DNA of 53,852 nucleotides from Deltaproteobacteria bacterium (GCA_022340515.1 JAJDNT010000056.1:1-53852); one strand, 5' to 3'; positions 20,804 to 53,852 are shown, counted from the first letter of the stretch. Program-made: numbers and translations. Notes: generated by a model not told the origin, from the letters alone.

Positions 20804-21331
20804 ATGACGGTAGATGCGGCGGAAAAGATTCTCGAGCGCAATAGCCTCAAGGCAAAAGTAGACTCTCTCCGGCAGTCAGGAAAATTAGTGATCTTTACCA
20901 ATGGCTGTTTCGACCTTCTGCACGCTGGACACGTGCGCTACCTGCAAGAGGCTCGCAAGCAGGGTGACTGTTTAGTAGTAGCAGTCAACAGTGACAGGTC
21001 GGTAGAGCAAATCAAAGGACCAGGACGTCCAATCATTCCAGATAATCAGCGCGCGGAGGTGCTGGCGGCACTTGGCTGTGTCGACTGGGTAACGATTTTC
21101 GATGAACCTGACCCCCTAGTTCTGATTAAGCTGCTCAAGCCGGATGTGCTGGTGAAGGGGAGCGATTGGCCGGAGAAGAAGATTATAGGGGCGAAAGAGG
21201 TTAAAGAGGCAGGAGGGAAGGTGTTAAGGATCCCTTTGGAAGCAGGGATCTCCACAAGTGCTATTTTCGAACGAATACGGTCTGCCTCAGGCAAGAAGAC
21301 CAAGGAGGAGCCGGAAAACCAGACTCTATGA
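20804..21331 (+). CDS. rfaE2: D-glycero-beta-D-manno-heptose 1-phosphate adenylyltransferase (stand-alone RfaE/HldE domain II)
   Basis: 175 aa. Cytidylyltransferase motifs are TNGCFDLLHAGHVRYL, VAVNSDRSV and LVKGSDW. No kinase domain is attached. Confidence 0.88.
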   Translation: MTVDAAEKILERNSLKAKVDSLRQSGKLVIFTNGCFDLLHAGHVRYLQEARKQGDCLVVAVNSDRSVEQIKGPGRPIIPDNQRAEVLAALGCVDWVTIFDEPDPLVLIKLLKPDVLVKGSDWPEKKIIGAKEVKEAGGKVLRIPLEAGISTSAIFERIRSASGKKTKEEPENQTL

Positions 21332-29990: not shown

Positions 29991-30560
29991 ATGAAGGTAC
30001 TTAGTATCCTCGGCAGTCCGAGGAGAGGCGGAAATACTGAAATTCTTTTAGATGAGGCGCTGCAGGGTGCGAGTGACCATGGCGGTTCCTGTGAGAAAGT
30101 CATACTGCGAGACCTTAAAATCACACCATGCTTGGAGATCTATAAATGCGCTAAGGATGGAGTATGTGCCATTAAAGACGATATGCAAGATCTTTTTCCA
30201 AAAATCGAGCAAGCCCAGAGGTTGATCATAGCTTCACCCATATTTTTTTACAGTGTCTCAGGCTGGACTAAGGCAATGATTGACAGATGTCAATCTTTAT
30301 GGGCAAAGAAGTATATTTTAAAGTTGCCGGTCTCCAACGTTCCCGACCGCAGGGGAGCATTCATCTCGGTAGCAGCTACCCGGGGAAAAAAACTTTTTGA
30401 TGGAGTGAGACTTACGATAAAATATTTTTTTGATGCCATCGATGTAAGTTACAGCGATGAACTTTTGGTGCGGGGAGTAGATGATAAGGGTGAGATAAGG
30501 AAGAGAGAGGAAGCTCTACAACAAGCTTATGAGTTAGGTAGAAGGCTGGTAGTAGATTAA
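29991..30560 (+). CDS. flavodoxin-fold NAD(P)H-dependent FMN reductase / iron-sulfur flavoprotein-like
   Basis: 189 aa. MKVLSILGSPRRGGNTE is a flavodoxin-like FMN site. A Cys cluster reads CLEIYKCAKDGVC. The ASPIFFYSVSG motif is present. Confidence 0.8.
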   Translation: MKVLSILGSPRRGGNTEILLDEALQGASDHGGSCEKVILRDLKITPCLEIYKCAKDGVCAIKDDMQDLFPKIEQAQRLIIASPIFFYSVSGWTKAMIDRCQSLWAKKYILKLPVSNVPDRRGAFISVAATRGKKLFDGVRLTIKYFFDAIDVSYSDELLVRGVDDKGEIRKREEALQQAYELGRRLVVD

Positions 30561-37746: not shown

Positions 37747-40700
37747 TTATAAGCCGCTAACTACAAACTCTAGAGGCTTTTTCAAATCTGCCAATTTAAG
37801 CAGGCCTCCTGACTTTTCTTCGGTGTAAGGCCACTGAATGCCGCCTTCTTGCAAAAGCTCATAAGAGAGCCCCTGGTAGAAGGGTACAACTGACATTATT
37901 TCCTTATACACAGATTCGGCGTCCTTGTATGTGGCTCCGCCGGCATCAAGCCTTGCCAATAAATCTGCCAGAATGCGCCAATCTGGAAGGGCATCGCCCG
38001 GAGCAGGCAAAACTGGCGAGAGTTTTTGAGCTCGCCGTTCGGTGTTGGTGAAAGTCCCCTCCTGTTCCGTAGAAGCTGCGGAAGGTAAGATCACATCTGC
38101 CAGTTCCCCACACTGGGTAAGCAACATATCCTGCACCACCAGAAATTCGACCTGCTCTAAAGCCTCTTGAACTTTCTCCCTCTCAGGTTGAGTGGCCAGG
38201 GGGTTTTCTCCCATCAGATAAAGTCCTCTAACTTTTTTCTGCTGGGCCGCTGCGATTATCTCCCGGTAATCCAATCCAGCGGCGGCTGGCAATTGACCTC
38301 CCCAGGCCTTAGTTAATCTATCGTTGACTGCCAAGTCTGAGACCCTGACATGTCCTGGGTAGAAAGATGGTGTCATGCCCATGTCCATGGCACCCTGGGC
38401 GTTGATCTGACCATATAGAGGATAGATGCCACTTTGCGGCTGACCAATGCGGCCAGTGAGTATGGCCAGGTTGACTATGGCCTCGACCTTCTTGGCTCCC
38501 TTGGCTTGAGCCGTAACATCTTCCGAGTAGACCATGGCCAGGGAAGAGCTATTTACAAGAATTAGGGCCAGCTCTTCAAAAGCGCTCGGCCGTATGTCAA
38601 GCTTGGCTAAAGTATCTAGATGATCGAAGGATGCCAGGGATTTTTCCAGGGCCTCTATTCCCTTGGTATGAGCAGCTACGAAGTCTTTATTATAGAGTTT
38701 AAGCTCAAGCACGAGTTTGACCAGACTTTGAAGGAAATCAGCCGTGTATTCCTTGGGAACAACCAAGGCAGGATCGGCAAATTTAGCCAGAGTCACTTCT
38801 GAGGAGCTCAAAGTAATGAGACGACGAGCATGGGTGCGGCTGGCTCTCCGCATGGCAGTGGCTACGATGGGATTGTTTTCTTCAATAGAATTGCCCAGAG
38901 CGAAGATGACCTCCGCCTTTTCAATTGCGCTCAACGAATTGGTCATGGCGGACTTGCCCATGGCTTGGGAAAGAGTCGACAAAGTGGCCCGATGAGACTG
39001 ACCTCCCAGGTAATCCAAATTGTTACACTGTAACTGTTTGCGAAAAATCTTTTGAAGCAGGTAATTGGCCTCATTGGTAGCTCGCGGGGAACCTATGGCA
39101 GCCAATCCGCCAGGGCCATGCTCTTCCTTTAATCGCTTAAATTCAGCGACCACTCGCTCCAGCGCCTCCTCCCAGCTAGCCTCGACTAATTTACCGTTTT
39201 TCTTTAGCAGGGGGGTCTGGAGCCTTTTGCCCTTGGAGAGATAATCAAAGCTGTCAAAGCGGCCCTGACGGCAGGTATAGCCATAGCTGGGTGGGGCGGT
39301 ATTATTGGTGCTAACAGTGAAGAGCTTGTCGCCCTTAACGTTTAGCAGAAGGTTACACCCACAGCCACAGTGAGGGCAAATAGTCTCCTTTTGCTCGTAA
39401 TGAAATGGGCCGGGTTTGCCGCTTATGCGTTCCTCCAATGCTCCGGTGGGACACAAATCAAGGCAGAGACCACAGAAAACGCAGTTTGAGTTAAGACTGG
39501 GAGTATCCTCAAAGTCGATGGCATCAGAACATTGGAAGAAAGTACAGGCCTCATAACATTGTCTACAGCGTATACACTTATTAGGATCCACGGCGATAAA
39601 CTGATGATCGTCGCGGCGGGAAACCTCATCGAGGGATATTTGAGGCTTGATCCTAGTAGTGGGTTCCAAGCCAAAATCAAAGGCGAATTTCCTTAGTCTG
39701 CAGTCAAAGGCATCCATGCAGCCACAAGAGAGACAGCGCTCCGCCTCCCTTCGCGCACCCTCCTCGGAAAGACCCAACTCGATTTGCTCATAGTTCTTAA
39801 TCCGTACATTAGGCTCCAATTCCGGCATGAGTTCACGAGGGGCTGAAGTAACCCTGGAGGTAAACTGTTCCTTCTCAATAGTTTCAAGATCACCCTTTAA
39901 GATATTAAAAGGCTTGGGCGGGCCAAACACTTCTTTCTCACGCAAATAAAGGTGTATGGCCATTGCCGCCTTGCGGCCATCAGCCAAGGCTCCAACCACG
40001 GTCTCAGGACCGCGATAGACATCGCCGCCGGTGAATACGCCCTCGAGACCAGTGTGCAAACTGTCCGGATCAGCCCCGAAGGTATTCCAGCGAGTAGTAG
40101 GAACACCCTCAACGCCTTTGTCGGATTCCACCGGGGAAAGATCAGGAAATTGCCCAATGGCTGCAATCACCATATCCACTGGAATCAAGGTCTCCGAGCC
40201 TTCGACAGGTACGGGTCGCCGCCTGCCGCTAGCGTCCGGCTCGCCGAGTTCCATTTTGATATACTCGAGTTTGTCAACCTTGCCGTTACTGCCAAAAAGC
40301 CGGACTGGAGCAGCCAAGAAATGGAACTTGACTCCCTCTTCTTCAGCACCATGAATTTCTTCGGGACTGGCGGGCATCTCTTCTCGAGAACGCCGGTAAA
40401 TAATGGTTACAGTATCTGCACCCATCCGCACACTGTTGCGGGCCGCGTCAATGGCAACGTTTCCGCCACCGATTATGGCAATGTTCTTACCAATGTTAAG
40501 CGGCTTGCCGAGAGCAAGGTCAACAAGGAAGTCTACCCCAGACCAGACACCCTGAAGGTCTTCTCCCACTACGCCTAGTTTTCGTGTATCCCAAGCGCCG
40601 ATGGCTAGAAGAAAGGCGTCGTACCCTTCCTGCCTGAGAGATTCGACGGTGAAGTCTTGGCCCCACTTTAGTCCAAACTTGACCTCGATGTTACCCAACT

Positions 40701-41466
40701 CGAGGATTCCGTCAATTTCCCAGTCGAGAATTTTCTTGGGTAAACGATATTCAGGAATGCCATAACGAAGCATGCCGCCCAGGGCAGGCATGGCGTCAAA
40801 GATGGTGCTACCGTGGCCCAGTCTGCGGAGATAGTAGGCTGCCGAAAGGCCAGCAGGTCCACCGCCAATGATGGCCACTTTACGACCGGAGAGTTCTGCC
40901 AGAGGCGGTGGGTTACGTTTGCCTGAGTGCATCTCAAAGTCGGCGACAAATCGCTTGAGGTGGTTGATATTGATGGGTTCATCCACCAGGTTCCGGTTGC
41001 ATTTGTACTCGCAGAAATGAGGGCAGACCCGACCTATGGTAAGGGGCATGGGCAGGCGCTCCCGAATAAGCTTTAAAGCCTCGATGTACTGTCCCTGGGC
41101 AATGAGGCCAATGTAGCCCTGAATATCTATTCCCGCCGGACAGGTGAGCTGACAAGGGGCCACACAGTCACCATAGTGTTCCTTGAGGATGAGTTCGAGC
41201 ATGAGCTTACGGATTTGATAAATTTCATCAGAATCGGTAGTAACCACCATGCCTTCTTGGATTTCAGTGCTGCAGGAGGCCTGAAGGTGTTCCTCTCCCT
41301 CCACTCGAACGACGCAGAGTCGACAACTCTCGATAGGTCTAAGAACCTCGTTAAAGCAGAGTGTTGGGATATGAATGTCGTTTTGCCTGGCCACCTGCAA
41401 AATAGTGTTGCCCGCTTCGGCCTCAAATTCATGCCCATTGATGGTTAGTCGAATCTTCTCCTTCAT
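37747..41466 (-). CDS. multidomain FeS flavoprotein: 2Fe-2S ferredoxin + GltD-like NAD(P)H/FAD oxidoreductase + 2x[4Fe-4S] + formate-dehydrogenase-alpha/NuoG-like molybdopterin-oxidoreductase domain (apparently non-catalytic)
   Basis: 1239 aa. The N-terminus is IRLTINGHEFEAEAGNTILQVARQNDIHIPTLCF...CRLCVV. The GltD-type region is CPAGIDIQGYI...GRVCPHFCEYKC, VAIIGGGPAGLSAAYY and IAIIGGGNVAIDAA. The ferredoxin motifs are CIRCRQCYEAC and CVFCGLCLDLCP. The MopB N-terminal cluster is CPHCGCGCN. By eye, GSPRATNEANYLLQK...NNLDYLGGQSHRAT aligns with FdhF ...NNVDxCARVUHGPS, placing Ser at the Sec/Cys position. The protein ends shortly after IQWP, so the C-terminal molybdopterin-dinucleotide-binding domain is absent. 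Confidence 0.85.
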   Translation of the reverse strand: MKEKIRLTINGHEFEAEAGNTILQVARQNDIHIPTLCFNEVLRPIESCRLCVVRVEGEEHLQASCSTEIQEGMVVTTDSDEIYQIRKLMLELILKEHYGDCVAPCQLTCPAGIDIQGYIGLIAQGQYIEALKLIRERLPMPLTIGRVCPHFCEYKCNRNLVDEPININHLKRFVADFEMHSGKRNPPPLAELSGRKVAIIGGGPAGLSAAYYLRRLGHGSTIFDAMPALGGMLRYGIPEYRLPKKILDWEIDGILELGNIEVKFGLKWGQDFTVESLRQEGYDAFLLAIGAWDTRKLGVVGEDLQGVWSGVDFLVDLALGKPLNIGKNIAIIGGGNVAIDAARNSVRMGADTVTIIYRRSREEMPASPEEIHGAEEEGVKFHFLAAPVRLFGSNGKVDKLEYIKMELGEPDASGRRRPVPVEGSETLIPVDMVIAAIGQFPDLSPVESDKGVEGVPTTRWNTFGADPDSLHTGLEGVFTGGDVYRGPETVVGALADGRKAAMAIHLYLREKEVFGPPKPFNILKGDLETIEKEQFTSRVTSAPRELMPELEPNVRIKNYEQIELGLSEEGARREAERCLSCGCMDAFDCRLRKFAFDFGLEPTTRIKPQISLDEVSRRDDHQFIAVDPNKCIRCRQCYEACTFFQCSDAIDFEDTPSLNSNCVFCGLCLDLCPTGALEERISGKPGPFHYEQKETICPHCGCGCNLLLNVKGDKLFTVSTNNTAPPSYGYTCRQGRFDSFDYLSKGKRLQTPLLKKNGKLVEASWEEALERVVAEFKRLKEEHGPGGLAAIGSPRATNEANYLLQKIFRKQLQCNNLDYLGGQSHRATLSTLSQAMGKSAMTNSLSAIEKAEVIFALGNSIEENNPIVATAMRRASRTHARRLITLSSSEVTLAKFADPALVVPKEYTADFLQSLVKLVLELKLYNKDFVAAHTKGIEALEKSLASFDHLDTLAKLDIRPSAFEELALILVNSSSLAMVYSEDVTAQAKGAKKVEAIVNLAILTGRIGQPQSGIYPLYGQINAQGAMDMGMTPSFYPGHVRVSDLAVNDRLTKAWGGQLPAAAGLDYREIIAAAQQKKVRGLYLMGENPLATQPEREKVQEALEQVEFLVVQDMLLTQCGELADVILPSAASTEQEGTFTNTERRAQKLSPVLPAPGDALPDWRILADLLARLDAGGATYKDAESVYKEIMSVVPFYQGLSYELLQEGGIQWPYTEEKSGGLLKLADLKKPLEFVVSGL

Positions 41467-41724
41467 GAAATCCCTCTTTTAGATGGTTTGGATGGAAAGA
41501 CAATCTTTGCACCTGTGGCGCATCATAACCACTCAAGTTTCCGCGCAAGTTCCATCAGGTTTTTGCTGGCCAGGTTGGCCACAGGAAGGGCAAACAAAGC
41601 TGATCATATAACACACATTCTTCAAACAGTCATTAACTTCGGCAATTTTTGGACTTACTGCAAGGAAAAATGTATTAATCCCTCACCCGCCGGGATTACG
41701 GCTCATACTCTTCACATCAGGGCT

Positions 41725-41925
41725 CTAACGGATAAGATAGATGGCGAAAGCGAAGACGATTGCTATTTCAATGGCAAATATCAAGGAGAAAAGTATGTAT
41801 TTGGAGACAGGAAAGTCTTCAAAGATTTTGTTCGCCTTCTGCAAAAAACTAGCGCCTATTGGAGAGGAATACATCCTAAAAGGGTCATTGGATTTGGTCC
41901 CTTGCCCAGCTGCATGCGCGGCCAT
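41725..41925 (-). CDS. possible small tail-anchored membrane protein (66 aa)
   Basis: The ATG at 41925 lies 7 nt after a strong AAGGAG RBS (reverse complement of 41933-41938). A C-terminal hydrophobic helix reads YILFSLIFAIEIAIVFAFAIYLI. It lies 259 nt upstream of the 1239-aa gene and on the same strand. No family recognised. Confidence 0.4.
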   Translation of the reverse strand: MAAHAAGQGTKSNDPFRMYSSPIGASFLQKANKIFEDFPVSKYILFSLIFAIEIAIVFAFAIYLIR

Positions 41926-42183
41926 CTTAATGCTCCTTGTCGACTGATATGATTAGGCCAAAATCGCTGGCCATTATAGGCAGGTCGGTTTTACAGTCAT
42001 GCAAAAACCAGCTGAGGGAGAAAAGGATCGATCTCACTTATTTTGTGAATAATATCCCTTTGTCCGGCGACGGAGTATAACCTTTTTTAAGCTGATGTAC
42101 AAGGGGAAACTCGGTTGATTTCGCATTTCTGATTTCGGATTACGGACTTATAGTAATTAAGTAAAGAAATTTATCTTTTGTCC

Positions 42184-42213
42184 TTGACGGTCGTAGGGAT
42201 TTCTGTTACAAAT
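42184..42213 (+). promoter_or_regulatory. candidate sigma70-type promoter of the nuo operon
   Basis: TTGACG at 42184-42189, a 17-nt spacer, then TACAAA(T) at 42207-42213, about 125 nt upstream of nuoA. This is a pattern match only. Confidence 0.3.
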
Positions 42214-42337
42214 CACGTCGTTTGTGCCAAATAGTACCAAATGATCTTATCCCGCCTCGCATGCCGTTCAAAGAACAATATGGGTAACGCTTGAGGCTGT
42301 TCCCCTGTGGCTGGCCCTTGGCAAAAGAGAGCATAGT

Positions 42338-42718
42338 ATGACAGCTCAGGTCTTACACGACTTCCTCTATGTGGGAGTCTTTTTGGTGGTAGGTATTGTC
42401 TTTGCCATTACGCCGATAATCATCTCGTGGTTGATTGGCGGCAGAAGCGTGGGTGTCAAACGGGCGGAGACTTACGAGAGTGGTATGCCCACCATCGGTA
42501 GTGCTTGGATACAATTCAGTGTTGCTTACTACATTTATGCCCTTATCTTTCTTGCCTTCGACGTGGACGTTCTCTACCTATTTCCGGTAGCCTTGGCCTA
42601 TGACAAGGGATATGTCATTCGCGACTTCATTGAGGTTTTCATCTTTATTGCTATTCTGTCCTTGGCCATTGTCTACGCCTGGCGTAAAGGAGTTTTCACT
42701 TGGCAGAGAAGGAGCTAG
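42338..42718 (+). CDS. nuoA: NADH-quinone oxidoreductase subunit A
   Basis: 126 aa with three TM helices. The motif [38 protein letters not shown] is present. It is the first gene of the operon. Confidence 0.92.
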
Positions 42719-43224
42719 CCCCAGGCCCTCGGGTGCAATTTGCGGTTGTAGAAGAGGTACTCAACCTGTGTAGGGCCAATTCCCTTTGGCCTATGACCTT
42801 TGGTCTAGCCTGCTGCGCCATCGAAATGATGGCAGCAGGAGCCAGTCGCTTCGACCTGGACCGTTTCGGAGCAGGAGTGTTCCGCCCCTCCCCCCGGCAG
42901 TCGGACTTAATGATCGTAGCGGGGACCATTGCCAAAAAGATGGCCCCCACGATAGTTACCCTTTGGGAGCAGATGCCTGCACCAAAATGGTGTATTGCCA
43001 TGGGTAATTGCGCCATCTCAGGAGGTCCCTTCCAATACGATGGTCAGTATGCCATAGTGCCTGGTGCTGATCTTATTGTGCCGGTGGATGTTTATGTGCC
43101 CGGCTGTCCGCCTCGACCCGAGGGGTTAATTCAGGGATTTCTGGCTTTAGAGGACCTAATAACCAAAGGCGAAAAACGTAATGTCTTTAGAAGATTTAAA
43201 AGAAGAATTGTCAAAGGTCGTTGA
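42700..43224 (+). CDS. nuoB: NADH-quinone oxidoreductase subunit B
   Basis: 174 aa. TTG start 7 nt after AAGGAG. The N2 cluster ligands are [18 protein letters not shown] and VPGCPPRPE. Confidence 0.93.
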
Positions 43225-43654
43225 TCCGGCGCATATACGGTCGCGGAATTACGAGAAAAACGGCTTTCTTTTAGAGGTTGAAGCCAAGGCCAAGGAGGTG
43301 GAAGCTTTGGCCAAAGCAGCCCGCGAGGCAGATTGTTTCCTTGAGTCTATCACCGCGGCGGACTTTACCGAGGGGGTTCAAATTATCTACCAGTTTAACT
43401 CCTTCTCCAGTGTATCTAGAACATTGGTGCGAGTGCAACTGGCAAGAGGCGAATCGATTCCCACCGTCAGCAGCATTTACGATGCGGCGCTCTGGTACGA
43501 GCGAGAAGTCTTCGACCTGTACGGCATTCAGTTCGACAATCACCCCGATCTGCGCCGCCTTTTGCTACCGGATGATGCTGACTTCCATCCACTTTTGAAA
43601 GACTACGGCAAAGTCCACGCCTTTAGGAGCACGGAAGAAATCTATGGCGAATGA
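43181..43654 (+). CDS. nuoC: NADH-quinone oxidoreductase subunit C
   Basis: 157 aa. The 30-kDa subunit motif [31 protein letters not shown] is present. It overlaps the nuoB 3-prime end, so the start is somewhat uncertain. Confidence 0.88.
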
Positions 43655-44762
43655 GTTCCTTGAGCCCGTAACCGAGCAGACCTTTTATCTGAATATGGGG
43701 CCCCAGCATCCTAGTACGCACGGGGTCCTGAGGCTCTTCCTCAAACTGGATGGGGAGTACATAGTTGAGGCGGACCCTATAATCGGTTACGGACACCGCG
43801 GCCATGAAAAAATGGCGGAGAGCCACCTCTACGAGCAATTTCTGCCAAACTCTTCCCGCATGGATTACCTCGCAGGTCTGATATACAACCATGGTTATGT
43901 TGCCGCGGTGGAAAAGATGGTGGGAATTGCAGTGCCACCGAGGGCAGAATACATTAGAGTTATCTGTGCTGAGTTGAACCGCATCTCCAGCCACCTCCTC
44001 TGGTTCGGCACCTATGTCATGGACTTGGGTGGCTTCACTCCCTTCCTTTATTGTTTTGATGATCGGGAAAACATCCTGGATATTCTGGACCGGGTCAGCG
44101 GCTCCCGTCTGACTTACAGCTACTGTCGTTTCGGCGGGGTGGCCAGGGACTTGGATGACGAGTTCATCAGGGAGACACGGAAATTCATCGACCGTTTGCG
44201 CAGTCGCTGGAATGACTATCATAACCTAGTCACCAAGAATGTGATCTTTATTCATCGAACCAAGGATGTGGGGATAATCAACCGTGAATTGGCCCTGCGC
44301 TTTGGCTGCACCGGACCAATCCTAAGAGCTGCCGGGGTAGCTTACGATATCCGGAGGGCCGAGCCCTATTCGGTTTATTCCGACTTTGACTTCGAGATTC
44401 CCACCGGCACTACCGGGGATGCTTTGGCTCGCTATATGGTCAGGTTGCAGGAGATGGAGCAGAGCCTGCGCATTATCGAACAGGCGCTGGACAGGTTGCC
44501 GCAAGGGCCGTTCAGGGCAGCGGTGCCCCACAAAGTGAGGCCCGCCAAAGGAGACTATTACTTCGCAGTTGAGTCTGCCCGCGGTGCCCTGGGATATTAT
44601 ATAGTGAGTGACGGAACCTCTTATCCCTACCGACTCAAAGCCCGGGTTCCGTCCTATGGTAACCTGCAGGTCCTCACCGACGTACTTCCCGGAACCCTGG
44701 TAGCTGACACCATCTCCATACTGGGAAGCATTGACATCGTCGTTCCCGAGGTAGATCGTTAG
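43644..44762 (+). CDS. nuoD: NADH-quinone oxidoreductase subunit D
   Basis: 372 aa. Motifs are NMGPQHPSTHGVLRL, GYGHRGHEK and a C-terminal SIDIVVPEVDR. Confidence 0.95.
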   Translation: MANEFLEPVTEQTFYLNMGPQHPSTHGVLRLFLKLDGEYIVEADPIIGYGHRGHEKMAESHLYEQFLPNSSRMDYLAGLIYNHGYVAAVEKMVGIAVPPRAEYIRVICAELNRISSHLLWFGTYVMDLGGFTPFLYCFDDRENILDILDRVSGSRLTYSYCRFGGVARDLDDEFIRETRKFIDRLRSRWNDYHNLVTKNVIFIHRTKDVGIINRELALRFGCTGPILRAAGVAYDIRRAEPYSVYSDFDFEIPTGTTGDALARYMVRLQEMEQSLRIIEQALDRLPQGPFRAAVPHKVRPAKGDYYFAVESARGALGYYIVSDGTSYPYRLKARVPSYGNLQVLTDVLPGTLVADTISILGSIDIVVPEVDR

Positions 44763-44781
44763 TACATAAGCGGAGAAAAGC

Positions 44782-45786
44782 ATGGCCGCCTGGCAAAAAC
44801 TGGTTAACTATCTAGGTCCGGATTTGACCGTGATTATTGTGGGGTTAGTGGGTGTCCTGGCTCTGGTGCAGGTCAACGCTCTGTTTCTGGTCTGGTTGGA
44901 ACGAAAGGTCGCTGCCCACATCCAACTTCGAATAGGTCCTAAAGAGGTTGGGCCTTTTGGTATTTTGCAAACTATTGTTGACGGTGTCAAACTGGTGAGT
45001 AAGGAACTCATCACCCCGAGCCATGTGGACAAGAAACTCTTCATCTTGGCACCCGTGGCCATATTCCTGCCGGTTTTGGTGAGCTTTGTGGTCATTCCCT
45101 TTAGTGAGAAGTTGCAGATCCGGGATTTAAACGTCGGGTTGCTAGTAATTTTCGCCTTTTCCACCTTTAACGTCCTGGCAATTCTTGTGGGTGGTTGGTC
45201 TTCCAACAACAAGTATTCTTTGCTTGGTGCTGTGCGCTCGGTGGCCCAGAATGTTGCCTATGAAATTCCCTTACTGCTTACAGTCCTTAGCGCTCTTCTC
45301 TGGTCTAATAGTCTGCAAATGTCTGAAATCGTGGAGTCACAGTCTACCGTGTGGAACGCCTTCTGGATGCCGGTGGCCGCATTAATTTATCTTATTTGCG
45401 CCACGGCTGAGACTAACCGGGCGCCCTTTGATATCCCCGAGGCGGAATCAGAACTGGTGGCAGGTTTCCACACTGAGTACGGTGGAATGCGTTTCGCCCT
45501 GTTCTTCTTGGCCGAGTATTCCAATATGCTTATTGTAGCGGCGGTGGCAACTACCCTGTTCTTTGGTGGCTGGAAGCCCTTGCCTTTTCTAGGGTTTCTG
45601 CCCGTGCCTGGCTTGATTTGGTTTTTTCTCAAGACCTATGTGCTGATCTTTGTCGTAATCTGGGTTCGTTGGACTTTTCCACGGTTGCGATTCGATCAGC
45701 TCATGAACTTCTGTTGGAAGATCATGATTCCGGCGGCACTGCTTCATCTGATCGTTTATGCCGGGATTATTAAGTTTATAAGGTAA
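44782..45786 (+). CDS. nuoH: NADH-quinone oxidoreductase subunit H
   Basis: 334 aa. Motifs are [41 protein letters not shown] and FLAEY. It starts 19 nt after the nuoD stop, leaving no room for nuoEFG. Confidence 0.95.
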
Positions 45787-45860
45787 CGGATTGACGAATT
45801 GAGGGATTGTGGGATTGGGGAATTATTGATTCTAAATTGGCTTACTAAATTCCTAAATTC

Positions 45861-46313
45861 GTGAATTGGAGCTACATGGGTATGATCAGAGACATTTTGG
45901 TAGGTGGCTGGAGCCTGATAGCAGGGATGGCGGTGACTATCCGGCGTATTTATCGGCCTGTGGTTACGGTGCAATACCCACGGAAACATTTGTATATGAG
46001 CCCCGCCTACCGCGGGCATATTGAGTTCAAGAGCTTCCCGGAAACCGGCACCCATAACTGCGTTGCCTGTGGTACTTGCATGCGATTCTGCCCTACCAAG
46101 GTAATCAAAGTTCAGGGCGAAAAGACTCATACCCATAGCGAAAAAAGAGCCAGCCTCTATTTTATCGATTTTTCTCATTGCAGTCTCTGTGGTCTGTGTG
46201 TGGCCAACTGTCCCACCCAGACTCTGAAATTTTCAGAAGAATACGACTTAGCCCATTATAGCCGTTGGGGAGGGGTAGTTGATCTCCTCCAGCGGTTGGA
46301 GGAATCGGCATGA
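45861..46313 (+). CDS. nuoI: NADH-quinone oxidoreductase subunit I
   Basis: About 145-150 aa. It has two 4Fe-4S ferredoxin motifs, CVACGTCMRFCP and CSLCGLCVANCP. The start is either GTG 45861 or ATG 45876. Confidence 0.9.
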   Translation: MNWSYMGMIRDILVGGWSLIAGMAVTIRRIYRPVVTVQYPRKHLYMSPAYRGHIEFKSFPETGTHNCVACGTCMRFCPTKVIKVQGEKTHTHSEKRASLYFIDFSHCSLCGLCVANCPTQTLKFSEEYDLAHYSRWGGVVDLLQRLEESA

Positions 46314-46846
46314 ACTCGGTTCAGAGCCTTATCCAACCACATCTTCTCGCTCAGGCAGGGTTTGCCGCCGTGGTTGTACTTACTTTTGCCGGAGCCCTCA
46401 TAGCGGTATTTCCCCGAAACATTCTCTACAATATCTTGGGTCTCATCGTCTGCCTCACCGGGGTGGCCGGCCTTTTCGTTTATCTGGGAAGCCCATTCAT
46501 TGCGCTCATGCAGCTGCTCATTTACGTGGGGGCCATCTGCATCTCCATTATCTTCGCCATCATGCTCTCCAGACCCCTTCACCTGAGTGTCCCCAAACGG
46601 CGTTTGCCTAAGGTAGGGTTAGCTGCGGGAGTGGGTGCGGTGGTTTTCCTTATGCTTGCGGGGATTATAAGCCGTACCCCTTGGCAGCCAGCCGTGAGTC
46701 GCAGCAGTGATTGGTCGGTGACTACCCTCGGACATTATTTGCTTACCCGGTACGATCTGGTTTTTGAAGCAATCTCTTTGGTGCTGTTAGTGGCAATCCT
46801 CGGCGCCATAGTAATCTCCGGTTATGCCCGCAGGAGGCCGTCGTGA
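46310..46846 (+). CDS. nuoJ: NADH-quinone oxidoreductase subunit J
   Basis: 178 aa. The motif FIALMQLLIYVGAICISIIFAIML is present. It overlaps nuoI by 4 nt, consistent with translational coupling. Confidence 0.9.
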   Translation: MNSVQSLIQPHLLAQAGFAAVVVLTFAGALIAVFPRNILYNILGLIVCLTGVAGLFVYLGSPFIALMQLLIYVGAICISIIFAIMLSRPLHLSVPKRRLPKVGLAAGVGAVVFLMLAGIISRTPWQPAVSRSSDWSVTTLGHYLLTRYDLVFEAISLVLLVAILGAIVISGYARRRPS

Positions 46847-47151
46847 ACAGTCTTACTACCTATCTTTTTATCGCGGCTTTGTTGTTCAGTCTCGGGATTT
46901 TCGGTGTTTTCCAGCGCCGCTCCCTCATCGGTATGCTCATCGCCATCGAACTTATGCTCAATGCAGCCAGCATAAATTTCATGGCATTTAACCGATTTCT
47001 GGCGCCTGATCCGATTGTGGGTCAGATATACACTTTATTCATCATGGGCATTGCAGCTGCTGAGGCGGCCATTGCTCTTAGTATCATAGTAGCTTTATTC
47101 CGCAGGCTTCGCTCCATCAATATCGAGCGGGCCCAAGAACTACGAGGCTAA
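46843..47151 (+). CDS. nuoK: NADH-quinone oxidoreductase subunit K
   Basis: 102 aa with three TM helices. The motif MLIAIELMLNAASINF is present. Confidence 0.92.
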   Translation: MNSLTTYLFIAALLFSLGIFGVFQRRSLIGMLIAIELMLNAASINFMAFNRFLAPDPIVGQIYTLFIMGIAAAEAAIALSIIVALFRRLRSINIERAQELRG

Positions 47152-47153
47152 CC

Positions 47154-49067
47154 ATGACCTCTTCCTGGTTCCAAGATCCAACTCTGTTGGCTGCCGCCTT
47201 GGCAGCCCTGCTGCCTTTCGTCACTTTCGCTTTGATCATGATTTTCACCCGGCCATATCCAAAACTGTCGGCCGCTATTTCCATTGCAGCTGTCAGTGTC
47301 TCCCTAGTATGTGCCATTTTCCTTCTTAGCAGCCATTGGCACCTGGAAAAACCCATACAATACGCCGCCAAGTGGATAATTTCAGGGGATATCTACATTC
47401 CCTTCGGATTTCTGCTGGACCAACTCAGTCTGGTGATGCTCACCATTGTTGCGGTTATCTCATTTCTGGTTCAGGTTTACTCTTTGGGCTACATGGCAGG
47501 AGACCCGGGGTTTGCCCGCTACTATGCCTTCCAGTCCCTCTTCGCCTGGGCCATGATGACCATGAGCATAGCGCCTACCATGCTGCAATTTTACGTTTTT
47601 TGGGAGTTGGTGGGACTGGCCTCCTATTTGCTCATTGGCTTTTACTATGAAAAGTTCAGCGCCTCAGAGGCGGGTAAAAAGGCTTTTGTCATGACCCGTT
47701 TCGGGGATATTGCCTTTTTCCTCGGACTGCTTCTGGTGTTGTTTAACTTCGGCAATCTAAATATCCTGGATATGAATTCCGTTGATGTAACCGCCCGTAT
47801 GTCACCAGCCTTGATAACCCTATCCGCCATATTGATTTTCGGTGGTGTTGCCGGCAAGAGCGCCCAATTCCCCTTGCTAACCTGGCTGCCCGATGCCATG
47901 GAAGGTCCCACCCCGGTGAGTGCCTTGCTTCATTCGGCCACTATGGTGGCGGCAGGGGTTTACATGTTTGCCCGGATTTTTCCCTTCTTCAGCCATTCGG
48001 CCGCTGCCATGAACACGTTTTTGGCCATCGGTACCATTACTATGCTGCTGGCCTCCACCATGGCCATGGTGACCAGGGACATCAAACAGGTGTGGGCCTA
48101 CTCTACTGTCAGCCAGCTTGGCTTCATGGTCATGGGACTGGCAGCGGGCAGCTACTTCGCCGGGATTTTTCATCTAACCACCCATGCTGGGTTCAAGGCC
48201 CTGCTCTTTCTCTGCTCGGGAGTTTTTATCCACGAGTTCGAAACCAATGACTTTTTTGAAATGGGTAAATACGGGGGCCGTGGCCTTAAGGTGCCAATGG
48301 TGTGTATGACTGTGGCCGCCGCGGCCTTGTCGGGCCTGCCGCCGCTCTCCGGCTTTTTTAGCAAAGAGGCGATCATGGGCGGTTTGGCCGGACTCCACAA
48401 CCCCGTCTGGCTGTGGGCAGGGTTGTTGGGTGCTTTTCTCACCGCTTATTATTCTTTCCGACTGATTTTTTCCATCCTCTTTCCACGGAAAATCGAAAAA
48501 ACTCATCAGGGAGAGCATGGTGGCCATGGTCATGGCCATGATGGCGGCCATCATCATGTTGGTATTTACTGGGTGATGGCTTGGCCTTTGATCATCCTTG
48601 CCTCTATCACCCTGGTACTTGGTTTCTTCCACACTCCTTTGGAAAATTTCCTGGTTGGCCATCACGGTGGTGCTGAGGCTCACGGTGGTCACCACGCCTG
48701 GTTGCTCTATGTGGCAGTGGGTTTGGCCCTTTCGGGCGTGGGACTTGCCTGGCTCGAGTTTGGCCGCAAAGGGGCCTCTCAGGTAGGTTTTGTCGAAAAG
48801 ATAGAGCCCATGAGCAGGCTCTTTGCCAACCGCTGGTATATTGACCATTTCTATCGACGCTTTCTCGATTATTTCATCTACGGAATTGTCTCGAACCTAT
48901 TTACCAGAAACGACCGCCGGGTGATTGACGGCGGCATCGACGGAATTTGCAGGGCCACAGTTGGCAGTGGCTGGGCGCTTTCCTTCTTGCAGTCGGGAAT
49001 GCTCCAGTACAATTTAATGGTGATGTTTGCTGTACTGGCCCTGGTGGCACTTTACTTCTTCTTTTAA
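47154..49067 (+). CDS. nuoL: NADH-quinone oxidoreductase subunit L (antiporter-like, with His-rich insertions)
   Basis: 637 aa. Motifs are WELVGLASYLLIGFYYEK, AGKSAQFPLLTWLPDAMEGPTPVSALLH and a C-terminal lateral-helix region. His-rich stretches are HQGEHGGHGHGHDGGHHH and GHHGGAEAHGGHH. Confidence 0.95.
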   Translation: MTSSWFQDPTLLAAALAALLPFVTFALIMIFTRPYPKLSAAISIAAVSVSLVCAIFLLSSHWHLEKPIQYAAKWIISGDIYIPFGFLLDQLSLVMLTIVAVISFLVQVYSLGYMAGDPGFARYYAFQSLFAWAMMTMSIAPTMLQFYVFWELVGLASYLLIGFYYEKFSASEAGKKAFVMTRFGDIAFFLGLLLVLFNFGNLNILDMNSVDVTARMSPALITLSAILIFGGVAGKSAQFPLLTWLPDAMEGPTPVSALLHSATMVAAGVYMFARIFPFFSHSAAAMNTFLAIGTITMLLASTMAMVTRDIKQVWAYSTVSQLGFMVMGLAAGSYFAGIFHLTTHAGFKALLFLCSGVFIHEFETNDFFEMGKYGGRGLKVPMVCMTVAAAALSGLPPLSGFFSKEAIMGGLAGLHNPVWLWAGLLGAFLTAYYSFRLIFSILFPRKIEKTHQGEHGGHGHGHDGGHHHVGIYWVMAWPLIILASITLVLGFFHTPLENFLVGHHGGAEAHGGHHAWLLYVAVGLALSGVGLAWLEFGRKGASQVGFVEKIEPMSRLFANRWYIDHFYRRFLDYFIYGIVSNLFTRNDRRVIDGGIDGICRATVGSGWALSFLQSGMLQYNLMVMFAVLALVALYFFF

Positions 49068-49079
49068 GGTGAAGCACAC

Positions 49080-50558
49080 ATGAGTATGGAGTTTGCCAAT
49101 TTTCCCTATCTTACCGCCATCCTCTTGAGTTGTGTGGTGGGCCTACTGGTGATCCTTTTCATTCCAGATGAGCGTAAGATGCTGATCAAATGGGTTAGCC
49201 TGGTCTTCTCCGGGATCACCATGGTGCTCTCCATCTACCTCTTCTTCGCCTACGATAAGACCCAAGGAGGCCTCCAGTTTGTCGAGAGAGTTCTGTGGGT
49301 CAAGTCACTGGGCATCTATTATTTCAATGGGGCTGACGGTTTCAATCTTCCCATGTTGATGCTTACAGGCATTGTGCTCTTCACCGGAGTTCTTACCATG
49401 TGGGAGCTGGAGACCCGGGTCAAGGAGTTCTTTGCTTTCACCTTCCTGCTGGTTGCCGGGGTTTTCGGCGTTTTCATGAGCATGGATCTCTTTTTCATTT
49501 TCGTTTGGTACGATGTTTCTCTCTTTCCCATGTATCCGCTCATTGCCATTTGGGGCAGCACCCGCAAAGAATACGGTGCCATGAAGCTCACCCTTTATCT
49601 CTTGGCTGGAAGTGCTTTGATTCTGCCGGGCATCCTTTATCTCTTCGTGAATTCGGGCCTCAACACCTTCGATATAGTCGCCCTTATGCAGCCGGGCACT
49701 TTTACTCCTTTCCAACAGAAGTTCGCCTTCATCCTCCTCTATCTCGGTTTCGGCATCTTAGCGGGTGTTTGGCCCTTCCACACCTGGTCTCCGGTGGGAC
49801 ACGTGGCCGCGCCCACTTCAGTGAGCATGATTCACGCCGGGGTCCTCATGAAGCTAGGAGCTTTTGGGGTTTTACGCGTGGCCATATTCCTCTGCCCAGA
49901 GGGCTGGCAGTACTGGGCCCAGCTCATGGCGGTGCTGGCCACCTGCGGCATCGTCTACGGTGCCTTCGTGGGGCTGGCCCAGACGGACCTCAAATATGTC
50001 ATTGGCTACTCCAGTGTGTCCCACATGGGTATCGTTGGCCTGGGGTTGGCCACGGTTACCGTAGATGGATTGAATGGTGCGGTGTTTCAGATGTTCGCCC
50101 ACGGGGTTATGACCGCACTATTATTTTCCTCCGTGGGCTACATTTACGATAAGACCCACACAAAAATGATTCCGGAGCTGGGCGGTATGAGCAGGACAAT
50201 GCCCGTTGCCTCGGGTTATTTCATCGTGGCGGCGCTGGCTGGAATCGGCGTTCCCTGCCTGGCTAGTTTCTGGGCAGAGCTACTGGTCTTTATCTCTGCC
50301 TTCAAGACTTATCCGATTCGGGGTGCTCTGGCCATCTGTGGCCTGGTAGTAAGTGCCCTGTTCATGTTGCGGGTGGTGCAGCGGACCTTTTATGGTGAGA
50401 AAAGAGAGGAGTTCGACCACCTGCCCGATGTCTCCTTCGGTCTGGGTATTCCCAGGATGATCCTGGTTGCGGTGATTGTCTTTTTTGGCCTCTTTCCGTC
50501 AGTGATGCTTGATGTGATACAGGTCGCCTCAATTCCCTTTATTAACGGGTTGCCGTAA
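49080..50558 (+). CDS. nuoM: NADH-quinone oxidoreductase subunit M
   Basis: 492 aa. Motifs are [30 protein letters not shown] and [10 protein letters not shown]. Confidence 0.95.
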
Positions 50559-51985
50559 TGAAATTGTGGATTCTCTTTATTCCTGAACTCTACTGTTTGT
50601 TAATGGGTGTGGTTTTCTTTGGCTTGGCAATGGTTGCCCGCCCCAATCCTAGGCGTGACTACTTCGTGGCACTTCTTTTGGCGTCGGCAGGGGTAGTTGT
50701 GGCTCTGGCCTCGATAAAGCTGGAGGGAACCCTATTTTTTGAGGCCTATAGGGTAGATCTTTTTTCCCAGGTTTTCAAAGTCATGCTGGCCATGGGCTTC
50801 TTCTTGGTTATCTGCTTTTGCACAGAGCTCAACGGCATAGAGGAGCGGCACCATCCCGAGTTTTATCTGTTCCTCACAACCTGCACCTTGGCTATGATGT
50901 TGCTGGTGAGCAGCGTCGAGCTTTTGACCATTTATGTCGCCCTGGAGCTCTCCAGTTATTCACTTTATATATTGGTACCTTTACGCCGAGGACACGGAAT
51001 CGATGTTGAAGCCGGCATCAAATACCTCATGGTGGGGGCTACCTCTTCAGCAGTTATGCTCTTCGGCCTCTCTTTTATTTTCGGGGTTACCCATACTACC
51101 TACGTGGTAGACATTATCAATGTCCTTCCCAGTGTTATTAGCAGTCCGGCTGCAATTGTGGGTCTACTTCTTGTCCTGTGTGGTTTCTTCTTCAAGTTGG
51201 CCGTATTTCCCTTCCATTTCTGGGCTCCTGATGTCTACCAGGGAGCTGCCAACCAGGTGACCGCCTACATTGCCTCCGCCTCCAAAGTGGCGGCTGTGGC
51301 CATTATCATGAGGATGGTGTCTCTTGTCGGCGGCGACAGTAAGTATCTGGTGCATGTGCTGGTAACCCTCTCAATTGCCTCCATGACCTTGGGGAATCTG
51401 GTTGCCATTGTGCAAAAGGACATGAAACGTCTTTTGGCTTATTCAAGTATTTCCCATGCAGGCTACGTCCTCATCGGAATTCTCAGTATGAGCCAAACCG
51501 GTTATGCCAGTGCCATATTCTATGCCCTGGCCTATCTGGTGATGAATCTTTGCTGTTTCCTGGTGGTTATAAAAGTTGCCCAGGACGGCAGTGACTTGAA
51601 AATTGCTCAACTGGCAGGGTTGCATCGCCGCTCTCCCATATTGGCCATGGCCCTGATGCTAGCTGTTTTTGGCCTGGCAGGTATTCCACCTACTATAGGG
51701 TTTACCGGAAAATTCTTGGTGTTCGCCGCAGCCATGGAGAAAGGCTACATCACCCTGGTTATTATCGCTATGATCAATGCCACCATTTCTCTTTACTACT
51801 ACATCTTGGTGGTGAAGGCAGCATACCTAATGGAGCCTGATGTGGAGCAGCCCCGGCTTGCAGTGTCAATACCAACTAAGCTACTCACTGGGGCGCTAGT
51901 GACCTTGATGGTAGTGTTTGGGGTTTTTCCCCATTATTTGCTGGAGGTGGCCAGAGCAGCCGCCAGGATGTTGCTGCAAGTGTAA
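50558..51985 (+). CDS. nuoN: NADH-quinone oxidoreductase subunit N
   Basis: 475 aa. Motifs are [29 protein letters not shown] and [12 protein letters not shown]. Its start overlaps the nuoM stop. Confidence 0.95.
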
Positions 51986-52025
51986 GTTAGCTTAAAATGC
52001 CTAAAATGAACTAGAGCGAATTAGA

Positions 52026-52769
52026 ATGGAACCTCAAGTCCCAAAATTTTGCCGAATCAATGAGCAGCAAGCCTGCATAACCATTTGTGAACCTTCTGGA
52101 ACTTGTACTTGTGACTGCCATGAGGTTCGCCAAGTACTGGAAAATGAGATCGCCGCCATGAATCTTGGGCTAACCGTTGGCACCATGAAGGTTGGCTGCA
52201 ACGGTGACTGTCCTTACGGGGTTCTGGTGGGCTTTCCCCAAAGGGGCTTTTTCTATGACCAGGTTGATGGAGAGCTGGCCAGGGAAGTGGTGAGCGGGAC
52301 CTTGGCCCAAGGCCACATACTTTTTGATCACTTGCACATAGATCCTTTAAAGGCTACCTCCGGTAAAATTTTATATGACCGATCAGGGTTCATCGCTACC
52401 ATCGACGATAGTTTTTGCATGGTTAAAGTTGCCCAGTATTTTCTGAAGTTTGAGGAGGGTGTTTCCTGCGGTAAATGCGTGCCCTGCCGGGTTGGTTCCC
52501 TTGAGCTTCGGGAGATCCTAGATCGTATTATTCAGGGAAAGGGTGAGCCAGAGGATCTTCAGAGGCTTGACTTGGTTTGCAGAGCCATGCAGGATGCGCC
52601 CTTCTGCGACTTTGCCAGGACTACCAGCGGTCCTGTAGTGGCCATCCTCAAATATTTCCGCTCTGAATTTGACAAACACGTTGACCAGAAGGTGTGTCCG
52701 GCTGGTGTTTGCGAGGGGCTGGCAAAGGAAGTGAAGGAAGAGAAAGCAGAAAAAGCAAGGCAAGAATAA
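52026..52769 (+). CDS. FeS protein fusing a thioredoxin-like [2Fe-2S] (NuoE-type) domain to a NuoF C-terminal [4Fe-4S] domain, without the FMN/NADH-binding domain
   Basis: 247 aa. The N-terminal Cys pattern is ICEPSGTCTCDC ... VGCNGDCPYGVLVGFP. The C-terminal part is FCMVKVAQYFLKFEEGVSCGKCVPCRVGSLEL...APFCDFA, which matches the NuoF/HydB N3-cluster region (ESCGKCxPCReG...C). It is the last gene before the terminator at 52800. Confidence 0.8.
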   Translation: MEPQVPKFCRINEQQACITICEPSGTCTCDCHEVRQVLENEIAAMNLGLTVGTMKVGCNGDCPYGVLVGFPQRGFFYDQVDGELAREVVSGTLAQGHILFDHLHIDPLKATSGKILYDRSGFIATIDDSFCMVKVAQYFLKFEEGVSCGKCVPCRVGSLELREILDRIIQGKGEPEDLQRLDLVCRAMQDAPFCDFARTTSGPVVAILKYFRSEFDKHVDQKVCPAGVCEGLAKEVKEEKAEKARQE

Positions 52770-52799: not shown

Positions 52800-52830
52800 G
52801 GGGCGAGTTCATTCTCGCCCTTTTTTATTT
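52800..52830 (+). terminator. rho-independent terminator closing the nuo operon
   Basis: GGGGCGAG-ttcatt-CTCGCCC at 52800-52820 is followed by TTTTTTATTT at 52821-52830. Confidence 0.85.
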
Positions 52831-53074: not shown

Positions 53075-53852
53075 CTAATTTACTACAATTAGGGAACAGT
53101 CACTGGCGCTTTGTAGCATCTTTGCTGCCCTGCTCCCCAGGTTAAACTCACTGATTGCAGACAGACCTCTCCGGCCGAAGGCTAAGATATTATAGTCGCC
53201 TCGGCTGGCCTCGGCGATAATATCGCGGGCGATACCGCGCATTCGAGTTGGCATCTGGTGGGTAACTTGCTTCTCGTCCATTCCAGCTTTGGTGAAAACC
53301 TCCTTGGCTCTGGCGAAGATACCTGCCATTCGTTCCTCATGATTTGAGCGCCACTTTGCTACCAGAGCGTCACGCTCGCTCCGTTCCCTCTCGTCCAGAA
53401 TGTGGCCATGGTCCCAGAACTCCGGAGGCTTGGCTGGCATCACATGGAACAAAGATATCCGCGTTCCGGGAAATGGGGCAAAATACTGAGCCAGGTGAGC
53501 CAAGATGCGTTCGGCATAATCAGAATCATCCAGGGCCGCCAAGATGTTAGGTGGTTTCAATTGAGGGGTGCCGATCACCCAAACAGGTTGTGCCTCTGAG
53601 TATTGGCAAATCTTCGCGGTAGTACTTCCCAGGAGGAATCTCTTCACAGCAGAGCGACCCTTTCTAGCAAGGACGATAGCGGCAAATTTGTTACTTTCGC
53701 AAGCAGTCAGAATATTCTGCGCAGTGTCTACGCTTTTCAACATGCGCTCTAATTCAAGACGGGAGCGCTTGTAACCCATTTCGAGCAACAATTCGACCGC
53801 TCTGTCTAAAACGCGCTGGGCCTGCCGTTCCTGGACCTTTTCCCATTCTGAC
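53075..53852 (-). CDS. tandem-domain universal stress protein, C-terminal part (5-prime end beyond the right edge of the window)
   Basis: The track ORF starts at an internal TTG (53791). The same frame stays open to position 53852 (...SEWEKVQERQAQRVLDRAVELLLEMGY...). Two USP-type ends are present: GRSAVKRFLLGSTTAKICQYSEAQPVWVI and GRRGLSAISEFNLGSRAAKMLQSASDCSLIVV. Confidence 0.8.
   Translation of the reverse strand, partial: SEWEKVQERQAQRVLDRAVELLLEMGYKRSRLELERMLKSVDTAQNILTACESNKFAAIVLARKGRSAVKRFLLGSTTAKICQYSEAQPVWVIGTPQLKPPNILAALDDSDYAERILAHLAQYFAPFPGTRISLFHVMPAKPPEFWDHGHILDERERSERDALVAKWRSNHEERMAGIFARAKEVFTKAGMDEKQVTHQMPTRMRGIARDIIAEASRGDYNILAFGRRGLSAISEFNLGSRAAKMLQSASDCSLIVVN

Follow-up and report, generated by a model that had tools for sequence, protein, structure and literature searches.

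The DNA examined was a 53,852-nt stretch of a Deltaproteobacteria bacterium that resembles sulfate reducers (GCA_022340515.1, JAJDNT010000056.1:1-53852; this whole stretch is called the window), in which an 11-gene operon for respiratory complex I (nuo) without nuoE, nuoF and nuoG is accompanied by three further genes: the gene of a 247-aa protein at the operon end (dF), the gene of a 1239-aa protein of StnC/NfnA type, and that of a 66-aa peptide (sm66). These genes are read, with a probability put somewhat above even, as an NADPH-oxidising head that has taken the place of NuoEFG. The operon and the genes beside it are as follows:

42338..42718, plus strand: nuoA; PF00507, E=6e-28.
42700..43224, plus strand: nuoB, bearer of cluster N2; PF01058, E=2e-27; tandem-Cys motif GLACCAIEM.
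43181..43654, plus strand: nuoC; PF00329, E=8e-29.
43644..44762, plus strand: nuoD; PF00346, E=6e-96; without NiFe-binding cysteine motifs.
44782..45786, plus strand: nuoH; PF00146, E=2e-120.
45861..46313, plus strand: nuoI (N6a and N6b); two 4Fe-4S motifs.
46310..46846, plus strand: nuoJ; PF00499.
46843..47151, plus strand: nuoK; PF00420.
47154..49067, 49080..50558 and 50558..51985, plus strand: nuoL, nuoM and nuoN, antiporter-like subunits; PF00361 and PF00662.
52026..52769, plus strand: dF, 247 aa, twelfth gene of the operon; PF10589 as sole Pfam match.
37747..41466, minus strand: StnC/NfnA-type gene, 1239 aa; Pfam and NCBIfam domain maps, PDB matches.
41725..41925, minus strand: sm66, a 66-aa open reading frame (ORF) with a C-terminal transmembrane helix; homologues in other loci.
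41926..42337: divergent intergenic region between sm66 and nuoA, 412 nt; from the sequence.

The ORF map and the Pfam assignments gave the order nuoABCDHIJKLMN on the plus strand; nuoD and nuoH are separated by 19 nt, and no E, F or G gene lies between them or elsewhere inside the operon. The tandem-Cys N2 motif of NuoB is kept and NuoD has no NiFe ligands, which identifies a quinone-type complex I and not an Ech/Mbh hydrogenase. No Complex1_51K domain (PF01512), the domain of flavin mononucleotide (FMN), was found in the operon or in the scanned ORFs of at least 150 aa of the 53.8-kb window, the short ORFs 14586-15041, 20804-21331 and 29991-30560 being left out of the scan; the remaining scanned ORFs are housekeeping genes (carAB, kdsB, TRAP transporters, prmA, an isocitrate/isopropylmalate dehydrogenase family gene, leuA). 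The start of dF lies 40 nt past the end of nuoN; the 1239-aa ORF is transcribed away from the operon on the other strand.

The 247-aa protein is, as judged from its alignments, a HydB/StnB-type subunit that has lost the flavin domain and the C-terminal ferredoxin domain. Pfam assigned residues 134-218 to PF10589, the N3 4Fe-4S domain of NuoF (E=1e-24), found no PF01512 and missed the N-terminal 2Fe-2S domain; a PDB sequence search related the N-terminus to the thioredoxin-like 2Fe-2S domain of HydB (7t2r_B residues 6-94, domain E=0.0011). The alignment with HydB is in two pieces, residues 16-104 to the N-terminal domain and 94-241 to HydB 400-549, so that HydB residues 95-399 (flavin/NAD domain; PF01512 plus SLBB) are skipped; the C-terminal 2x[4Fe-4S] ferredoxin-like domain is absent, the protein stopping ~18 residues past the Cys3His site with a Lys/Glu-rich tail. 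In the family alignment C21/C31/C58/C62 are invariant and C27 and C29 nearly so; invariant as well are the N3 ligands C148/C151/C154/C194 and the set C131/H218/C224/C229, which aligns with the Zn-stabilised linker region of StnB/HydB (PMC10482914). An AlphaFold2 model (pLDDT 88, pTM 0.83) gave HydB, StnB and NfnB chains as all of its top Foldseek matches. Within the family short Lys-rich C-termini are common, and one relative (P0367) is without the N3 cysteine motif; P0358, P0361, P0362, P0366 and P0367 have Pro/Ala/Glu-rich tails of 150-250 residues with a Lys-rich end. The long members (420-505 aa) were considered as Nuo/NuoG fusions that would point to physical contact, and were rejected, their extensions being only low-complexity Pro/Ala/Glu-rich, Lys-terminated tails.

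The 1239-aa protein is, by its domain map and structure matches, a StnC/NfnA homologue with a catalytically inactive FdhF/NuoG-like molybdopterin domain. The domains are Fer2_4 (3-79), Fer4_20 with Pyr_redox_2 (101-497, GltD/NfnB fold), a 4Fe-4S dicluster (623-678), Molybdop_Fe4S4 (694-737) and Molybdopterin (748-1171); for StnC itself the layout is 2Fe-2S 1-101, GltD 102-565 and inactive FdhF-like domain 683-1172 (PMC10482914; PMC7483475). The Pfam scan of the protein found neither the Molydop_binding domain (PF01568, domain IV) nor PF10588, the contiguous His-ligated N5 motif of NuoG; the N5 motif of the NuoG fold is split by a GltD insertion of 470 residues. One flank of this insertion keeps the HxxxCxxxCxxxCP motif (H97-C101-C105-C109-P) and the other CxxCxCx(4-5)C (C578xxC581xC583x5C589), Cys motifs described in this position for StnC/NfnA-type proteins (PMC7483475). 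The best PDB match was 9bov_A (Caldicellulosiruptor saccharolyticus Nfn-ABC chain A, E=8e-231), beside 8oh5_C (StnC of Sporomusa ovata, E=1e-210, over residues 3-1031) and 9n5u_A (NfnA of Thermococcus sibiricus, E=1e-186); the alignments with 8oh5_C and 9bov_A are end-to-end. StnC residues K170 and R239 correspond to K171, the ligand of cluster C7, and R241, a functionally important Arg; the NADPH signature GxGxxA + YRR is present as GGGNVA / YRRS. At the Sec/Cys-His position of FdhA (Sec, selenocysteine) the window protein has Ser-His and orthologue L084 (L numbers denote homologous loci) has Ala-Gln. Public annotations of these proteins read 'hypothetical', '(2Fe-2S) ferredoxin' and 'formate dehydrogenase major subunit'; an active formate dehydrogenase, as in the last of these (a JGI label), was rejected on account of the missing domain IV and the Ser at the Sec/Cys position. 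Neither stnA (NuoE-like) nor a full stnB was found in the window or beside any orthologue examined; nuo genes stand there instead. An observation apart concerns a lone StnC-like paralogue of Desulfosoma caldarium (L081, 14356-18196), located near an ABC transporter with SBP_bac_11/PBP_like components and an HTH-PBP_like regulator; the neighbourhood resembles molybdate/tungstate uptake loci, which is odd given the inactive-looking molybdopterin domain of the paralogue.

The peptide gene sm66 is located upstream of the StnC-like gene. Homologous 66-aa ORFs were found in L084, L085 and L086 and also in L113, L117, L122, L133, L135 and L136, that is, in at least nine other loci, beside StnC-like or Sec-FdhA genes. 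The conserved core Y-[AS]-S-x-[VI]-G-x-x-[IF]-[LM]-x-x-A-N-x-I-x-E-[DE]-F (..Y-A/S-S-P-V/I-G...ANKIFEDFP-x-SKY..), cytoplasmic, is followed by a hydrophobic C-terminal helix; no Pfam family matches the peptide. The tail-anchored sm66 product is a candidate membrane anchor or accessory subunit. A promoter-like site (ATGACT-16-TATAAT, 10/12 matches, a pattern match only) lies on the minus strand at 42000-41973, just upstream of sm66. The spacer between sm66 and the StnC-like start (41467-41724) is 258 nt long in the window versus 35-92 nt in L084-L086; neither in this spacer nor in the 412-nt divergent region was a regulatory RNA found by Rfam at gathering score, nor were tRNAs. A 154-aa ORF on the plus strand (41488-41952) was rejected as a gene: it has no Pfam family and overlaps the conserved sm66 on the opposite strand.

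A first-pass annotation of this DNA had listed the same nuo operon without nuoEFG and with the 19-nt D-H gap, and the ORFs lie where it placed them, in agreement with Pfam. It had described the 247-aa protein as a NuoE-like 2Fe-2S domain joined to the N3 part of NuoF without an FMN domain, which is borne out by PF10589, the HydB alignment and the AlphaFold2/Foldseek results; and it had seen in the 1239-aa protein a 2Fe-2S domain, a GltD module, 4Fe-4S clusters and a degenerate molybdopterin domain, as the Pfam map, the lack of domain IV and the Ser at the Sec/Cys position confirm. Two of its statements had to be given up: the fusion of GltD and NuoG parts, held there to be undescribed, is the known StnC/NfnA/NsoC architecture (PMC7483475, PMC10482914), and the unusual flanking genes are not two only, the third conserved gene, sm66, having been missed.

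A scan of metagenome contigs, for which only the N-terminal half of the 247-aa protein was used as being specific to the family, gave 49 loci, 39 of them with more than 400 nt of upstream DNA; in all of these 39 the dF homologue (identities 41-92%) stands directly 3' of nuoN, as it also does in L084, L085 and L136. A scan of a genome collection with the full-length dF family alignment and the universal N3 motif SCGKC[VT]PCR was discarded: all 80 loci were ordinary NuoF/HydB (Firmicutes, others). Every StnC-like orthologue examined (identity at least 57%) adjoins a nuo operon, in one of three layouts: divergent from nuoA (window, L086); nuoN-dF-sm66-stnC-like (L084, L085); and nuoN-dF-stnC-like-usp-sm66 (L110, L114, L122/L123, L136). 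In L084, L085, L122 and L136 the StnC-like gene is co-directional with and downstream of nuoN. Linkage kept through such rearrangement argues for a functional bond between the StnC-like gene and the operon, and recurrence of the gene set in dozens of independent contigs shows that the arrangement is not due to chance. In a neighbour-joining tree the nuo-linked StnC-like proteins form one clade; the relatives are Syntrophobacteria and Desulfobacterota metagenome-assembled genomes (MAGs). The gene order thus supports an evolutionary tie of both genes to the EFG-less nuo operon.

The most distant dF relatives (41-48% identity) are followed by a gene for a plain NuoG-like protein of ~772 aa, with the PF10588 N5 motif intact and no GltD. 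Two isolates belong here, Desulfacinum hydrothermale DSM 13146 (L139) and Desulfoferrobacter suflitae (L140), whose dF relatives (43-48% identity) stand after nuoN; the gene of a 617-aa NuoE/F-like flavoprotein ends 13-15 nt before nuoA (L139 1-136, L140 1-108), so that both operons, read to the flank limit of the loci, have the order F-ABCDHIJKLMN-dF-G. No sm66 was detected in these two operons. In the window clade no gene abuts nuoA upstream; the place is either non-coding for 220-400 nt or holds sm66 and the StnC-like gene. In the sister operons the plain NuoG occupies the place of the StnC-like gene. The simplest history suggested by these gene orders would be a head swap, in which the NuoE/F-like gene was lost and the plain NuoG was replaced by a StnC-type protein from the Stn family. 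Over the common part, the StnC-like protein and the resident NuoG-like proteins are only ~30% identical, as against best structure matches of the former among Firmicutes and archaeal StnC/NfnA (E=1e-186 to 8e-231), which supports recruitment from Stn.

The component families (StnC/NfnA, HydB/StnB, Nuo) are known, and Nuo heads of Bfu type have been proposed already (PMC9304861). As in StnABC/NfnABC (8oh5; 9bov; 9n5u), the 1239-aa protein combines 2Fe-2S, GltD FAD/NADPH site (FAD, flavin adenine dinucleotide), FeS (iron-sulfur) chain and inactive FdhF-like domain, and the 247-aa protein has the thioredoxin-like 2Fe-2S domain, the N3-type 4Fe-4S cluster and the Zn-hinge residues of StnB/HydB. 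Unlike StnABC, the window is without a StnA gene and its StnB-like protein is without the FMN/NAD and 2x[4Fe-4S] domains, so that the bifurcating core is gone; the genes lie within or beside an 11-gene nuo operon, not in a stnABC cluster, and the 66-aa membrane peptide is added. Nuo-Bfu, a predicted 14-subunit complex I with a BfuABC head, for example in Geobacter (Schut et al. 2022, PMC9304861), shares with the present proposal the idea of a head derived from HydABC/Bfu on a proton-pumping, menaquinone-reducing Nuo core, and occurs in related anaerobes. There the FMN-bearing BfuBC core is encoded mid-operon and confurcation of NADH and ferredoxin was proposed, whereas the window system has its flavin as FAD in the GltD insertion, from which NADPH is predicted as donor, has a B subunit devoid of FMN, and carries its extra genes either behind the core nuo genes or on the other strand; since that survey required a full FMN-containing BfuB, it would have missed the window system (PMC9304861). 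The Desulfacinum/Desulfoferrobacter operons share the nuo core clade and the FMN-less F-like gene after nuoN with the window and differ in the 617-aa NuoE/F-like start and the plain 772-aa NuoG end. With canonical NuoE/F/G the window proteins have in common a flavin, an N3-type 4Fe-4S cluster, a 2Fe-2S cluster, NuoG-fold 4Fe-4S clusters and an inactive molybdopterin domain; they differ by FAD in GltD on the G-like subunit (not FMN on F), lack of NuoE, a split N5 and NADPH, not NADH, as predicted donor. Exchange of the head over 11 retained core subunits is also found with FpoF (F420H2), cyanobacterial NdhS/V/O (ferredoxin) and Campylobacter NuoX/Y with NuoG (flavodoxin) (PMC3144371, PMC11238625), but those proteins are unrelated, use other donors and none has a GltD-type NADPH site. 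The soluble SfrAB of Geobacter sulfurreducens (cited in PMC7483475) pairs a GltD-like NADPH subunit with a NuoG/FDH-like FeS subunit, as two separate soluble proteins and without nuo linkage, whereas in the window the two are fused and nuo-linked. A full-text literature search of incomplete coverage found no paper in which nuo operons are connected with a StnC-like gene or with one for an FMN-less NuoF-like protein.

The proposal, judged somewhat likelier to be right than wrong, is that the NuoEFG head has been replaced by one derived from Stn/Nfn-Bfu, and that NADPH electrons enter complex I by way of FAD and an FeS chain and finally reduce menaquinone. Domain content, cofactor motifs, StnC/StnB homology and strict synteny with the EFG-less operon are its observed part. 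In Stn, NADPH reduces the FAD of StnC and the electrons pass C7...C3 to B1, the N3-type cluster of StnB; this route of the NADPH electrons into the partner subunit was shown biochemically (PMC10482914). By the same steps, NADPH would be bound at the GltD-type Rossmann domains of the 1239-aa subunit and would reduce FAD; the pair of 4Fe-4S clusters of GltD and the NuoG-like clusters would then carry the two electrons away singly. The 247-aa protein would dock on the NuoG-like part by its N3 four-helix domain, as in the pairs StnB-StnC and NuoF-NuoG, and add one 4Fe-4S and one 2Fe-2S cluster; the 66-aa tail-anchored peptide may help to tether the head at the membrane arm. From there electrons would go to NuoI (N6a/b), NuoB (N2) and menaquinone, with proton pumping by NuoH/A/J/K/L/M/N. 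The same assembly could run backwards, as menaquinol:NADP+ reduction driven by proton-motive force (pmf). The Stn chain ends at B1, and the domain of this cluster is retained in the 247-aa protein together with the Zn-hinge residues and the N-terminal 2Fe-2S domain, which was counted in favour of an NADPH head, as was the terminator-like hairpin that closes the operon behind dF. NADPH specificity is suggested by the motifs together with the precedent of StnC; cluster order and direction of electron flow are likewise proposals. With no FMN-bearing BfuBC core, and given that the FAD of StnC was shown not to bifurcate (PMC10482914), neither bifurcation nor confurcation is likely. Of the NAD(P)H-linked entry claimed in the first-pass annotation, the NAD(P)H part is thus supported by the kept FAD/NADPH motifs, and the ferredoxin/NADPH confurcation offered with it is unlikely for want of that core.

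Several points weigh against an NADPH head on complex I. Docking of the head is indicated by gene order only. The GltD insert sits within the N5 motif, which in complex I is the NuoI-facing side, and may hinder canonical docking; on this geometry either the head would dock differently or the 247-aa protein would serve as a bridge. The StnC of Sporomusa forms a soluble tetramer core (PMC10482914). The absence of an FMN-type NuoF applies to the scanned 53.8-kb window and not to the whole genome. In the two isolates dF co-occurs with a complete NuoF-like protein and a plain NuoG, so that it is no simple NuoF replacement; standing beside a full flavoprotein it is an additional subunit conserved in this lineage of complex I, and more than a NuoF remnant. 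The earlier view of the two flanking genes as a substitute N-module consequently stands as far as their tie to nuo is concerned, and has to be amended for the 247-aa protein. Paralogues of the same architecture (sister clade, 45-49% identity) stand alone, away from nuo, also in Desulfosoma caldarium, and in several MAGs adjoin two-component or unrelated genes; a location mostly away from nuo operons, named in the first-pass annotation as contrary evidence, applies only to these paralogues and not to the orthologues. Finally, all members of the window clade are MAG or metagenome sequences from uncultured organisms.

Stand-alone paralogues in related bacteria, the soluble enzyme to which StnC belongs (PMC10482914), and the position of the window StnC-like gene in a minus-strand transcription unit of its own would also suit a different arrangement, in which the StnC-like protein, either by itself or together with the 247-aa and 66-aa proteins, forms a separate NADPH oxidoreductase that is no more than co-regulated with Nuo (SfrAB-like, or Stn-like with ferredoxin, thioredoxin or metal as acceptor) and the 11-subunit complex is fed by ferredoxin or another carrier, ferredoxin being the usual candidate donor for 11-subunit enzymes (PMC11238625). 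This arrangement is considered unlikely: reduction of ferredoxin by NADPH alone requires a bifurcating core, for which the locus has no genes; the nuo operon always ends with the gene of the 247-aa partner-type protein; and the StnC-like gene has stayed nuo-linked through three rearrangements, including the four co-directional loci.

In the Syntrophobacteria/Desulfobacterota group reverse electron transport from menaquinol to low potential is needed. With the same composition, the head might work chiefly in reverse, pmf pushing electrons from menaquinol to NADP+ for biosynthesis or syntrophic oxidation; the relatives are found in MAGs of this group, Sec-FdhA genes adjoin the module in L085, L113 and L117, and reversibility is a property of complex I as well as of the Stn chain (PMC10482914). 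The sequence fixes no direction, but electron flow from NADPH to menaquinone, being strongly downhill, is taken as the default, and reverse operation is regarded as improbable. Least probable is a head that is incomplete here and is completed for NAD(H), ferredoxin and NADPH, in the manner of Stn or Nuo-Bfu (PMC9304861), by a HydBC/NuoEF-type flavoprotein from elsewhere: the 617-aa NuoE/F-like gene directly before nuoA in the sister operons and the NuoE-like and HydB-like genes of L085 (~5 kb off, beside a Sec-FdhA gene) would fit it, but upstream of nuoA the window clade has 220-400 nt of non-coding DNA or, in the window, sm66 and the StnC-like gene; the scanned ORFs of the window include no flavoprotein of this kind; and the HydBC genes of L085, located on the opposite strand with FdhA/FdhD genes of their own, seem to belong to an independent soluble formate dehydrogenase.

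Beyond the NADPH head proposed for the window, FdhA genes whose products have a NuoG-like N-terminus and whose reading frames are interrupted by TGA at ..ARL[U]HSS.. were observed beside the same type of nuo operon, after sm66 (L113, 2638-4920; L117, 3465-6236) or after the StnC-like gene (L085, 13677-16448). As neighbours these Sec-FdhA genes raise the possibility of a formate-linked head. Complex I of Syntrophobacteria type could then be modular, an FMN-less dF adaptor after nuoN receiving interchangeable NuoG-fold heads on an 11-subunit pump: plain NuoG with NuoE/F, the StnC-type NADPH head, and possibly Sec-FdhA. This wider scheme is held tentatively and is rather doubtful; if true, such a machine could pump protons while passing electrons from NADPH or formate to menaquinone, and in reverse could carry out menaquinol-dependent reduction of NADP+ or CO2 in syntrophs.

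Further features downstream of the operon are:

52800..52821, plus strand: terminator-like hairpin and T-run; consensus scan, pattern match only.
53075..53791, minus strand: universal stress protein gene (usp); PF00582.

The hairpin has an 8-bp stem with 6 GC pairs, is followed by TTTTTATTT and lies 31 nt past the dF stop codon; it probably marks the operon end. The usp gene adjoins dF or the StnC-like gene, in either orientation, in most window-clade loci (L087-L089, L092, L100, L101, L104, L105, L108, L113, L117, L118, L120, L122, L123, L133, L136); whether it is a functional part of the module is uncertain. Elsewhere in the window (24092-25420, minus strand) a flavoprotein of the CoA-disulfide reductase/NADH-oxidase family has an in-frame TGA (25289-25291) at the position of the redox-active Cys (..VSFSS[TGA]PTPYY..), with a hairpin of -16.4 kcal/mol ~10 nt downstream; the ORF list gives only the 362-aa part after the TGA, and the protein is probably a selenocysteine protein.

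The electron donor of the 11-subunit complex I in anaerobes is a long-standing question (PMC3144371, PMC11238625). One clade now gains a concrete candidate supported by gene order, a non-bifurcating FAD-based NADPH head built from Stn/Nfn-Bfu parts, and the cultured relatives Desulfacinum hydrothermale and Desulfoferrobacter suflitae are available for direct study of the FMN-less subunit. If the proposal is true, NADPH would join NADH, F420H2, ferredoxin and flavodoxin as a donor of complex I, and a soluble bifurcating enzyme would have lost its FMN core and been turned into an input module for respiration. Sulfate reducers and syntrophs would then possess a proton-pumping link between the NADPH pool and menaquinone, and estimates of their energy yields would change.

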